Below are positions 51,584 through 55,435 of a stretch of 64,000 nucleotides of DNA, piece by piece. A model generated the notes under the pieces. That model made no database searches. It was not told the origin of the DNA and saw only the letters and a program-made list of their open reading frames with translations. How positions within the stretch are numbered: position 1 is the stretch's first letter; each line of letters starts with the position of its first letter. Made by a program: the position numbers and the translations under genes. The stretch is taken from positions 5,929-69,928 of IMG/VR virus record IMGVR_UViG_3300044840_000020, one strand, 5' to 3'. This DNA is from a virus. Taxonomy: Duplodnaviria > Caudoviricetes.

Positions 51584-52027
51584 ATGAAGATCACGTTTCC
51601 GAGCGTAGTCACGCTCATCCTCGGTTTGGTTGGCGGGGTTCTCGCTTACCTCAACCAGGCGTCGTTTGCTTTCCAACCACCGTGGAATCAGGTCATCACA
51701 TTTGGCTTGTATGCGCTCGCGGTAATCGGTATCAGCCCGCTCGTTCACGGAGCGTTCCGGTCCGCCCTACACGTGTCCGTTACGACCGCTACGTCGATCA
51801 CTACCCTCGCGGCCCTGCTTGCGGCGGGGATCACGACGTTCTCGATGGGTGCGGACGCGAAGGGCGTGCTGGAGGGGATTCTTGCGTTTCTCGCGTTCGT
51901 TGGGTTCGCGCCGGCTACCGCGGTTCCTATGGGGTCTGTACCGGCGGTAGCGGTTCCTGTTGGGGCGGTTCCGTTGGTCACGCCCCCGGTCGGGACAGCC
52001 GTTCCTCCCGCTGCCCCGGTGGCGTAG
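51584..52027 (+). CDS. Holin (multi-TM, putative)
   Basis: About four hydrophobic segments, duplicated two-TM unit, inside lysis cassette. Confidence 0.6.
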   Translation: MKITFPSVVTLILGLVGGVLAYLNQASFAFQPPWNQVITFGLYALAVIGISPLVHGAFRSALHVSVTTATSITTLAALLAAGITTFSMGADAKGVLEGILAFLAFVGFAPATAVPMGSVPAVAVPVGAVPLVTPPVGTAVPPAAPVA

Positions 52028-52031
52028 AACG

Positions 52032-52694
52032 ATGAGCGTCTCCGTCCCCTCAGAGACCCTTCAGACGTTCACGCTCGCCGATCTCGCGCCGTACGCGACG
52101 GAGGGCGCGTTCTCGGCGGACGATAGTCCGGACTCGCGCTTGTTTCTCGTCGGCCGGGACGACGTGTTCGGGGTTCTAATGCATCTCTACACGCGGGTAA
52201 CCCTGTCGATCGAGTCCACTATGTTCGGGTTCGACAGTGATGAACTGAACGGCGTGATCTGGTCGAAGGTTGAGGACCCGAACGTCGTCGTGGAGCAGGT
52301 TCTTGACTCGTCCCAGGCGGGAGGCGTCCACGAGAAGAAGATCCTCGCGGCGGACGCGACCTCAGACCCAGAGAAGTACGCCGCGGACTTCGTAATCATG
52401 AGATCCGACTCGGGACAGATCGTCCACAGTAAAGGGGCGGTACTCGACGGGGTCGTCGGATATGAAGGTTCCACGAACTGGTCCGCGTCGGGGATGGGGC
52501 AAGGGATCGGTCTTCACGGCGCGGCGAACGTCACCGGGTTTAAGGCTCAGGAGAACACGTTGCTGGTTTTCACGAACCGGGTGATGATCGCGAAGCTCTC
52601 GGCTCGGATTCGGTATACGGCGATTTCGGGGCGTGCTCGGAACGCGGCGAAGGTTGCGGCGTTAGCGGCGACTCCTGCCTTACCGGGGGTCTGA
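52032..52694 (+). CDS. Phospholipase D-superfamily protein (single HKD)
   Basis: HSKGAVLDG....EGSTNWS. Confidence 0.75.
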   Translation: MSVSVPSETLQTFTLADLAPYATEGAFSADDSPDSRLFLVGRDDVFGVLMHLYTRVTLSIESTMFGFDSDELNGVIWSKVEDPNVVVEQVLDSSQAGGVHEKKILAADATSDPEKYAADFVIMRSDSGQIVHSKGAVLDGVVGYEGSTNWSASGMGQGIGLHGAANVTGFKAQENTLLVFTNRVMIAKLSARIRYTAISGRARNAAKVAALAATPALPGV

Positions 52695-53181: not shown

Positions 53182-53218
53182 GCGCCGTCTACGCCTTGTG
53201 CGTAGACGGCGCTTTTTT
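53182..53218 (+). terminator. Intrinsic terminator ending the late/lysis operon
   Basis: 13-bp perfect stem GCGCCGTCTACGC/GCGTAGACGGCGC, 5-nt loop, then TTTTTT. Confidence 0.85.
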
Positions 53219-53225
53219 CGTTCCC

Positions 53226-53248
53226 TTTATAGTTCGTCTACCCCGAAC
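53226..53248 (+). promoter_or_regulatory. Conserved motif, copy 6
   Basis: TTTATAGTTCGTCTACCCCGAAC upstream of ATG 53268. Confidence 0.65.
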
Positions 53249-53267
53249 GAAAGAAGTGCGTAGGGAG

Positions 53268-54053
53268 ATGATCGAGGTCTGGACCGATGGAGCTTGCTCG
53301 GGTAACCCGGGTCCAGGAGGCTGGGCCTACGTGATCGTTCATCCCGATGGTTCACGCTGCGAGGGAAGCGGCGGCGAACGGATGACGACGAATAACCGCA
53401 TGGAGATGATGGCCGTGATCGAGGGACTACGCTCCCTCGCTGACGCGAATACCGTGACCGTTGTGACCGACTCGGCTTACGTCGAGCGACCGTTTACGGA
53501 GGGTTGGATCGCTGGCTGGAAACGACGAGGCTGGAAACGCTCGGGACGTAAGGGACAACCCGCCGAACTGAAGAACGCCGAACTTTGGCGGGATCTGTAC
53601 GCCGAAACCCAACGATGCGACATTACCTGGCGACGAGTGAAGGGCCACTCCGGTGAACCCCTAAACGAGCGTTGTGATCAGTTCGCGGTCGCGGGGACCC
53701 TCGCGAACGGCGGGGACCCTCGAAAGATGATCGAACTCGGCGGGCAACGTTCCCCCTCGCGTCGCCCGCGACTCTCCGATAACAGGCCGCATCCCGTCCA
53801 AACTCTTCAGGCTGAGAACCTCACGCCCGAGGAACGCGAACGCTACGGATTCGCGGACCTCGCCAACGAACAACCCGACATCTGGTGGTGGATCTACGCT
53901 CGCCCACGAAGCCGATGCGAACGCTGCTCCGAGCAGCTCGCCGCAACCTCTATCGCCGCGTGGTGCCACGAACGTCGCCTGATGTACTGCGTCGCTTGCG
54001 TTACCGCGACGGGTACCGAACCCGCTCCGTCTAAACGCTGCGCAGGTCCCTAA
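53268..54053 (+). CDS. rnhA: Ribonuclease HI with C-terminal Cys-finger extension
   Basis: TDGACSGNPGPGG, TNNRMEM, TDSAYV, KNAELW, VKGHSG..LNERCD; C-terminal CERC...C..C. Confidence 0.9.
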   Translation: MIEVWTDGACSGNPGPGGWAYVIVHPDGSRCEGSGGERMTTNNRMEMMAVIEGLRSLADANTVTVVTDSAYVERPFTEGWIAGWKRRGWKRSGRKGQPAELKNAELWRDLYAETQRCDITWRRVKGHSGEPLNERCDQFAVAGTLANGGDPRKMIELGGQRSPSRRPRLSDNRPHPVQTLQAENLTPEERERYGFADLANEQPDIWWWIYARPRSRCERCSEQLAATSIAAWCHERRLMYCVACVTATGTEPAPSKRCAGP

Positions 54054-54059
54054 CCTACT

Positions 54060-54660
54060 TCCGAGCGTCCCCTTGCAATGGGTCTCGTTAGATCCGAAGC
54101 GAAGGCGTACTGACCCCCTTTGAGGGGGATCAGTAGCGAAGGGGGTTCTGCAACGGGGTAGCTGTTGAGTCCTCGCTTCGGCTCGGAGACTACGAACGAT
54201 GCCGGGTACACGCTTACCCATCGTGGCCGTCGCCGCTGCTCGGCTTGGGCCTTGTCTCCGCCTGACGTGCTCTCGCACTCGGGCTTTTGATCCTAGGCGG
54301 TCAACCTAGGTTCCGGAGGGTTTCCTGCTCAAAGGACTTTTGAGAGGCCGCAGAAAGGCTCCGCCTTTCGGCGGGCGGGTCCCTACGGTTCGCCGGTTTT
54401 CCCGATAGCGAAATCCGTATCGAAGACGGACTTGCGGCTCTTCACCCAGGGCATCCGCTAAACTACCCTTATCTCGTTATGTAGACGAATGGCTCGGGTC
54501 TTCGGCTTGGGCCGTTCGTCGTTAACGGGGTAGGTTAGCGCGAGGGCGGGCGGTCGCGCTTTTCGCGCTAGGATTCGCGTCGTTCTCTTATCCCCTCACA
54601 AGGAGGTCGTGTCCCACGGCCTGCGCGCGAGTTCCCTGGTGAGAGGGGGGAACGGCTTGT
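54060..54660 (+). ncRNA. Candidate large structured non-coding RNA (family unknown)
   Basis: At least seven hand-identified stems, two cUUCGg tetraloops (54176, 54500), G-U pairs favouring + strand, no convincing ORF. Confidence 0.55.
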
Positions 54661-54699
54661 TGTTCTGGGCGTTGGTCCGCGTCGGTTTTGGGCAGCGTT

Positions 54700-55266
54700 A
54701 TGCAGATCCTTCGTCGAGCGACTATCGTGGCGCTCCTATCCGCTGGGCTTGGCTCGGCTACCTCGACTGCGAGGGTTGTACGCAGTTCCGCGATTCGGTC
54801 TTGTCCTAGGACGTTTTCGCTTACTCAGTTTGATCGGGCGGCGGATAGGGTCTACGGGTCTACTCGATTGCCCCCTACGGGCTCGTATGGGGCGTTGTGG
54901 AGGTTTGCGCGGTGTTCTAGGGCTCCGAGTACGGAGCGGGGCGCTCGTCGTCTCTGGGGGCGGGAGATCGTCGTGTGGAGGGCGCGTAGGCATCCTCCGA
55001 TGTCTACGGCGGTCGCGTCGTGGTATCAGGACGGTGGGCAGACGGCGTCGGGGTTTCATGCGACGTTCGGATTCGCGAGCTTGATCCTGGGGTTCGGGAC
55101 GCGCGTGAAGTTTTGTTATCCGGCGGGGTCATCCCGTTGTGTTGTTGGGATGGATGATGATCACGGCCCGTACGTTGGCGGGAGGACGTTTGATCTGAAT
55201 CAGACGCTTGCGGGGGCGCTTGGGTTCGGCGGGGTTGACGTGGTTTCGTGGAGGGTCGTTCGCTAG
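54700..55266 (+). CDS. Secreted RlpA-like double-psi beta-barrel lytic transglycosylase
   Basis: Signal peptide; ASWY....TASG, GTRV, DDHGPYVGGRTFDL...A.ALG. Confidence 0.75.
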   Translation: MQILRRATIVALLSAGLGSATSTARVVRSSAIRSCPRTFSLTQFDRAADRVYGSTRLPPTGSYGALWRFARCSRAPSTERGARRLWGREIVVWRARRHPPMSTAVASWYQDGGQTASGFHATFGFASLILGFGTRVKFCYPAGSSRCVVGMDDDHGPYVGGRTFDLNQTLAGALGFGGVDVVSWRVVR

Positions 55267-55400
55267 GCCCCGGGGTGGTAGGATTAGGTTTTCCGTTCCT
55301 CCCTAACGGGAGCGGCGTTTGGGTGTTGATGAGGCTCGGTCGCGATTCGTTCGCGGCCGAGCTTTTTTGTGGTTAGGACTGGTATTCCCCTTGGCGATCG

Positions 55401-55423
55401 TTTATAGTGGTCCTTACCCGAAC
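55401..55423 (+). promoter_or_regulatory. Conserved motif, copy 7
   Basis: TTTATAGTGGTCCTTACCCGAAC upstream of ATG 55436. Confidence 0.75.
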
Positions 55424-55435
55424 GCAAGGAACCCG

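Follow-up and report, generated by a model that had tools for sequence, protein, structure and literature searches.

A structured intercistronic region between the RNase HI and DPBB/RlpA-like genes of a soil phage

What is the role of the long, densely folded stretch of DNA that directly follows an RNase HI gene (rnhA) in a phage from soil? We analysed the 64-kb stretch of sequence around it, called the window throughout, which comprises bases 5929-69928 of a linear 69.9-kb IMG/VR virus contig from soil that is about 70% complete. The stretch in question, called the gap, covers 646 nt (54054-54699) between the end of rnhA at 54053 and the ATG of a DPBB/RlpA-like gene at 54700. A preliminary description had taken it for a single ncRNA of about 600 nt tied to rnhA. 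We arrive at a different division of the gap. Our preferred reading, to which we give a probability of about 0.4, is that it is a cis-acting intercistronic region of an mRNA, in which a lineage-specific hairpin spacer of about 515 nt is followed by a conserved translational leader of about 130 nt.

The proposed transcription unit around the gap

The host of the phage is probably a soil Actinomycetota. Judged by its terminase, whose nearest IMG/VR relative is only 53% identical, the phage belongs to an isolated and very poorly sampled lineage. The + strand carries almost all long ORFs of the window, and the genes around the gap all lie on it; the upstream neighbours of this region are tail-fibre, endolysin, holin-like and PLD-like genes. 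The holin-like membrane gene and the PLD-like gene (51584-52694) are also adjacent in a 105-kb IMG/VR phage (L007:4658-5669), at 68% and 78% identity. Downstream of the pair the content of that phage differs, a further sign that the sequence to the right of the lysis genes is mosaic.

The region is divided into units by two kinds of signal. An intrinsic terminator on the + strand, with a 13-bp stem followed by T6 (53182..53212; local z-score -4 to -5), closes the preceding unit. Behind it, 19 nt 5′ of the rnhA start, lies a phage promoter-like motif of the form TTATAGT-N6-(T)ACCCGAACG (53227..53249, + strand; repeat family D1). The motif TTATAGT-N6-TACCCGAACG is present in seven copies in the 64-kb window, where 0.11 would be expected, and these copies (3442, 5439, 9567, 47259 on the minus strand, 53227, 55402 and 56452) mark non-structural units. 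A second intrinsic terminator on the + strand (55331..55365) follows the DPBB gene and is itself followed by the next promoter-like motif at 55402; these two terminators are the only strong ones that the terminator scan finds across the region. Inside the gap, the motif scan finds no copy of the promoter-like motif on either strand, and a scan for sigma-70-like sites finds none. The succession of motif, rnhA, 646-nt gap, DPBB gene and terminator therefore reads as one unit, and from this layout we infer + strand transcription across the gap.

A looser version of the motif, TTATACT...TACCGAGG, occurs 3′ of the DPBB gene (L014:1175-1205) on a 1352-nt JGI soil contig, L014, which is the sole useful metagenome relative for the DPBB gene. 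The promoter type may be common to this phage and the L014 phage.

The first gene of the unit (53268..54053, + strand; PHROG 531) encodes an RNase HI whose catalytic domain (residues 3-143; Pfam PF00075, E 1.5e-34) is followed by a Cys-rich C-terminal part of about 115 aa with a CxxC...CxxC pattern. The catalytic domain is 55-59% identical to cellular RNase HI, the one named match being a Solirubrobacteraceae MAG, and it looks catalytically intact by sequence. For the C-terminal part we found no relative among 5.8 billion proteins, where the N-terminal domain alone was matched, and none in metagenome contigs; the full-length query returned only distant RNase H domains from IMG/VR. An AF2 model of this part (pLDDT 62.8) consists of helices and a small sheet, and neither the sequence nor this moderate-confidence model, searched with Foldseek, has a match in the PDB. 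An identical RNase H is found on a second contig (P0001, 13.5 kb), which has the same sequence as the window.

The gap itself is non-coding, as the preliminary description had proposed. On the + strand, no longer stretch of the window is free of ORFs of 50 aa or more; the longest ORF in the gap has 41 aa, and TAA, TAG and TGA are each present in all six of its frames. Nine stop-free peptide pieces from the gap have no Pfam or PHROG match. We rejected a protein-coding gene, whether intact, recoded or decayed, on these grounds: every frame contains stops, and neither Pfam nor PHROG reveals a remnant. Two short frames may be recorded here. One is a 36-codon ATG ORF within the spacer (54199-54309), preceded at a distance of about 10 nt by GGAG and hydrophobic in its N-terminal half. 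The other is an Arg-rich minus-strand ORF of 205 aa (53661-54278), which lies opposite the C-terminal part of rnhA, reaches 225 nt into the gap and looks like a GC-driven spurious frame.

Hairpins of the spacer

We found that the gap is structured beyond chance. Its folding z-score, relative to 20 shuffles, is -3.4 on the + strand and -4.7 on the minus strand. When folding energies are regressed on GC content, the + strand energy of the gap is the lowest among 197 genomic windows of 647 nt (z = -2.9), which confirms the dense structure that had been read from the letters directly after the RNase HI gene. On the minus strand, 9 of the 197 windows fold lower, so that the gap ranks about tenth after the same GC adjustment. 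At a local scale, the + strand z-score is -2 or lower in seven of the 120-nt windows that cover the gap, compared with 3% of 40 random coding windows, whose mean z-score is -0.18. The signal is located at 54030-54210, 54180-54330 and 54420-54600; the coding flanks have z-scores near 0, and the other intergenic regions of the phage attain comparable values only at terminators.

About nine robust hairpins stand out by their pair probability (P), and they make up a chain of stable local structures along the spacer (54054..54566, + strand), which has no credible ORF and no homolog. The first of those singled out here is a perfect Watson-Crick hairpin of 12 bp with one bulged A, which can form on either strand (54108..54135, P 0.95) and was already present in the preliminary description. 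Four short hairpins stand side by side at 54260..54374 (54260-84, 54292-310, 54328-44 and 54348-74; P 0.80-1.0), with local z-scores of -2 to -2.4 on the + strand and -2.3 to -3.5 on the minus strand. Here too the stems noticed earlier were recovered, at 54292-54310 (P 0.80), at 54328-54344 (P 0.83) and in the region of 54361-54374, where the hairpin spans 54348-54374 (P 0.94-0.99). A cUUCGg tetraloop hairpin proposed at 54176 is not present in the best fold, where CGAAG at 54137-54141 is the pairing partner of its CUUCG. Between 54054 and 54420, most stems contain Watson-Crick pairs only and can form equally well on either strand.

The long, irregular hairpin at 54456..54540 has a different character. 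It is specific to the + strand, with local z-scores of -3.9 to -4.9 there versus -1.3 to -3.2 on the minus strand. Its core (54484-54520) contains 17 bp, of which 5 are G-U pairs, at P 0.99, and an extension of 5 bp (54475-54479/54523-54527, P 0.98) brings the stem to 22 bp. The outer arms (54456-54468/54528-54540) would give up to 33 bp, at a P of 0.15. The nested stem formerly drawn at 54463-54533 is thus well supported in its core and extension and weakly supported in its outer arms. The related proposal that mismatches are read as G-U pairs on the + strand applies to this hairpin and fails for the other strong stems, which are purely Watson-Crick.

Just 5′ of the leader, a weak terminator-like hairpin on the + strand (54538..54563) combines a 6-bp GC stem and a 10-nt loop with a following TTTT. 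Its stem (54538-54559) was missed by the terminator scanner, which limits loops to 8 nt, and has a low pair probability in the global fold. The two remaining stems of the preliminary description, 54536-54570 and 54631-54653, have low single-sequence probability; the second turned out to belong to the conserved leader hairpin.

If the spacer is transcribed with its neighbours, its hairpins could act on the mRNA in one of several ways. They could stabilise the 3′ end of the rnhA message; the long hairpin, with 22 bp and up to 33 bp should its weakly supported outer arms pair, could be a processing site, as the modelled stem is long enough for an RNase III-type substrate; or the weak hairpin with its U4 could be a partial stop that uncouples the two cistrons. 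Such arrangements have precedents. In the RNase III hairpins of phage T7 early mRNA and the sib-type 3′ structures of lambda, cleavage separates messages and leaves a stabilising 3′ stem. The gap resembles these systems in that long hairpins with imperfect pairing, each about two helical turns in length, stand between the cistrons of a phage operon. It differs from them in having no sequence similarity and in carrying about nine hairpins over 515 nt, compared with one site per junction. The position within an operon, the excess of hairpins and the + strand-specific long stem together favour a cis role of the spacer at the RNA level. Two observations stand against this reading: the Watson-Crick stems fold equally well on the minus strand, which is compatible with a DNA-level role or with chance palindromes, and the spacer is absent from L014 and apparently from a close natural variant, which fits weak or no selection.

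A conserved leader ahead of the DPBB gene

The second gene of the unit (54700..55266, + strand; PHROG 7930) encodes a DPBB/RlpA-like protein, secreted to judge by its signal-peptide-like N-terminus, with the DPBB domain at residues ~100-185 (Pfam PF03330, DPBB_1, E 7.7e-4, below the cut-off). Its homologs include the protein of L014, 70% identical over the full length, and one from a second locus, L006, at 65%. Among the loci returned by the IMG/VR query with this protein, L006 and L008 do not have the gap; the DPBB protein of L014, used as a query in turn, found none in IMG/VR.

When we aligned the DNA upstream of the DPBB gene with that of L014, the last ~130 nt of the gap were shared and nothing further 5′. 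This leader (54567..54699, + strand) contains a Shine-Dalgarno-like box, AAGGAGGT, around which its core is nearly invariant between the two sequences. Over 54566-54664, aligned with L014 386-484, column identity is 81%, above the 70% amino acid identity of the gene itself. The core can be folded into a hairpin of ~84 nt (54576-54659) with three stacked helices: P1 (54576-89/54646-59), P2 (54595-603/54635-43) and P3 (54605-11/54615-22). All 26 of its pairs are standard in both sequences, with 4 compensatory and 5 one-sided changes, whereas controls in which the structure was slid along the alignment are 46-62% paired. The covariation comes from two sequences, from which the structure was also derived, and it is suggestive of a conserved fold.

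The gene that precedes the leader differs between the two loci. In L014, an unrelated gene (L014:1-380, 126 aa seen, no Pfam match, and no tblastn similarity anywhere in the window) ends 7 nt before the leader, and both rnhA and the ~515 nt are missing. We therefore assign the leader to the DPBB gene rather than to rnhA. Its position, its conservation above that of the gene and its compensatory pairs (in two sequences) are those of a conserved cis-regulatory leader, and by sequence comparison it is the one piece of the gap with comparative support. An earlier suggestion that the whole region might be a long regulatory leader for the rlpA-like gene thus holds for the last ~130 nt, which recur before the homologous gene in L014, and not for the first ~515 nt, which are absent there.

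How might such a leader act? The ~84-nt hairpin would partly sequester a strong Shine-Dalgarno-like box located ~90 nt before the real start, and the leader would thereby set the translation level of a secreted enzyme that is potentially damaging to the cell wall. Against this stands the possibility that the AAGGAGGT box serves a short upstream ORF, though the frame and its length differ between the loci. Directly behind the box lies a 66-codon GTG ORF (54609-54809) that overlaps the DPBB start in another frame; the corresponding frame in L014 has ~10 codons, in a different register. Because the upstream frame differs in both length and register, a conserved upstream peptide is unlikely, and the 66-codon ORF is probably not a gene.

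We searched for further copies of the leader. Exact patterns of its core gave only chance matches in IMG/VR and GTDB genomes, and a covariance model (R1) found no further copy in 22 loci, including those around DPBB homologs. In 151 genomes from the order of the best DPBB host match, R1 gave two matches, one of them weaker and partial; the better one lies antisense inside a helicase gene and was rejected as chance. The closest known counterparts are the structured 5′ leaders and riboswitches that precede cell-wall hydrolase genes in actinobacteria, among them the ydaO/c-di-AMP riboswitch ahead of rpf and RlpA-like genes. The likeness consists in a conserved, structured leader before a secreted DPBB/RlpA-like gene. 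The differences are that the Rfam ydaO model does not match here even at E <= 10, that the present leader consists of one hairpin of 84 nt in which a Shine-Dalgarno-like box is contained, and that it is found in two phage-like contigs only, neither in the 151 genomes, apart from that one weak partial match, nor at the DPBB-homolog loci.

Relatives, natural variants and competing explanations

The spacer has no relative in the collections that we searched. The Rfam 15 models, which covered ydaO, GOLLD, ROOL, group I and II introns, RNase P, SRP and tmRNA, had no match in the whole window at the gathering threshold; relaxed to E <= 10 on 53900-54900, they gave three chance matches of 11-18 bits, compared with thresholds of 45-112. 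ARAGORN found no tRNA or tmRNA gene in the window. No known family was therefore matched, in agreement with the preliminary description, which had recognised no tRNA, tmRNA, RNase P, SRP or c-di-AMP riboswitch signature. Using the gap as a blastn query in distant mode, we obtained no match in 50,697 phage records; blastn gave only chance matches of 15-32 nt in three partly syntenic IMG/VR records (G001-G003), and four short matches in 401 sampled Actinomycetota genomes, of which the two inspected are chance similarities in coding regions. Patterns of two spacer hairpins likewise gave chance matches only, that of 54108-54135 a single, unrelated one in IMG/VR. The searches also included the unpublished genomes G004 and G342, on which none of our conclusions depends. 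We also rejected a repeat or mobile element (a MITE or an IS end), as there is no second copy in the phage or in the 401 genomes and long-range inverted repeats are at chance level.

Natural variants of the region come from soil DNA. The region, whole or in parts, is present in three runs. One of them is probably its source, the fragments of the second are identical, and the third, run X3, contains a variant whose flanking genes are ~96% identical. One X3 contig, of 151 nt, matches up to 54051, at the rnhA stop, and continues with 104 nt of unlike sequence; another matches only from 54788, at codon ~30 of the DPBB gene; and a third breaks at 55424, directly after the promoter-like motif. Depth is low, and coverage holes carry no weight. 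The partial matches do point to the rnhA stop as a mosaic junction, with the spacer replaced or strongly diverged in X3, and the three positions look like junctions of module exchange at gene or motif boundaries. Within 53700-54050, the X3 variant carries a 1-nt and a 2-nt deletion that jointly preserve the frame, which fits real coding sequence in the C-terminal part of the RNase H.

The same variants offer the next most probable explanation, an unlikely one in our estimate, that the ~515 nt are functionless filler at a mosaic junction, left by decayed genes or by old terminators of swapped modules, and that the leader alone is functional. The lack of a homolog in the collections searched, the absence from L014 and the pattern of X3, whose ~96% similarity ends at 54051, resumes at 54788 and breaks again after 55424, as is typical of module exchange, are all what filler would produce. 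Phage genomes are compact, however, and no other gap in these 64 kb is as large. Decayed coding DNA should also fold like its flanks, with z-scores near 0, whereas the gap has a strong local excess of structure, and no protein remnants were detected in it with Pfam or PHROG. Under the cis-acting reading that we prefer, the first ~515 nt would have arrived, or stayed, when the rnhA module joined the leader, and the gap would be the transcribed, composite intercistronic part of a two-gene unit.

Could the spacer instead be a free-standing, trans-acting ncRNA of ~0.5 kb, such as a decoy or a regulator, that is cut from the operon transcript and represents a new family of one genome? We judge this distinctly less probable than filler. 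Its size, its density of hairpins and its + strand-specific G-U pairing would suit such an RNA, as would the empty Rfam search and a possible 3′ end at the hairpin and U4 of 54538-54563. We found no promoter motif of its own, however, and it is not retained in the close X3 variant. The tetraloop sequence CTTCGG occurs twice versus 0.36 times expected, only a mild excess. Homologs and the covariation they would carry had been named as the way to confirm a new ncRNA; the ~515 nt have no homolog to align, so that covariation cannot be computed for them, the one result that tells against the proposal on the terms of the preliminary description itself. GOLLD and ROOL, phage-borne and highly structured RNAs of several hundred nt, resemble the gap in these respects. 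They are conserved across many genomes, which the gap is not, and their Rfam models do not match it. A bolder version strikes us as a little more doubtful again: the ~515-nt chain would be a new, fast-evolving phage ncRNA, released from the rnhA-DPBB transcript at the RNase III-like hairpin, whose action in trans might be to decoy a host nuclease or defence system, for example, or to work jointly with the Cys-domain RNase HI. A single ~600-nt ncRNA tied to rnhA is not supported, since L014 has the leader without rnhA and X3 diverges at the rnhA stop.

A palindromic element acting at the DNA level, as a replication origin, a recombination site or a partition site, is improbable. In its favour, the gap has several palindromes of perfect Watson-Crick pairing that can form on either strand, with minus-strand local z-scores down to -4.1. 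The palindromes are all different from one another, though, and the repeat search found no iterons or repeated boxes; GC content is 0.60-0.62 throughout, with no AT-rich stretch, and the integrase and ParB-like genes are located elsewhere on the contig.

Least probable, at the very edge of what we would entertain, is the idea put forward earlier that the gap encodes a preprimer like ColE1 RNA II, whose R-loop the neighbouring RNase HI would cleave so that replication can start. In ColE1, RNA II starts from its own promoter ~500 nt upstream of the origin, is controlled by the antisense RNA I, and forms a persistent RNA-DNA hybrid, in which the cut by RNase H produces the 3′ end of the primer. 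The likeness lies in a region of ~500-600 nt near an RNase H function; apart from this neighbourhood, with an rnhA that looks catalytically intact, and from a few runs of G on the + strand, nothing speaks for the idea. The gap lacks an antisense partner like RNA I, a promoter of its own, the iterons or AT-rich stretches of an origin and any conservation; the sole promoter near it is that of rnhA, and X3 seems to keep rnhA without the spacer sequence. Neither the C-terminal domain of rnhA nor the ~515 nt has relatives through which a linkage could be shown, the contig, at 70% completeness, has no DNA polymerase I family gene and no reverse transcriptase gene, and the literature on phage RNase H and R-loop origins yielded nothing specific.

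Annotation of the gap as non-coding, structured RNA or DNA is sound; the claim that it represents a large new family of ncRNA with a link to RNase H cannot be upheld. If the cis-acting reading is true, the gap is a feature of an ordinary kind, the structured intercistronic and leader RNA of a phage operon. The larger questions about phage ncRNAs would be touched only if the ~515 nt were a discrete trans-acting RNA. What looked like one ncRNA of 600 nt is divided into an orphan spacer and a small, conserved motif in the leader of a gene for a secreted RlpA-like enzyme, a distinction whose value is mainly practical, and once more relatives are sequenced the leader could be established as a new cis-regulatory motif.
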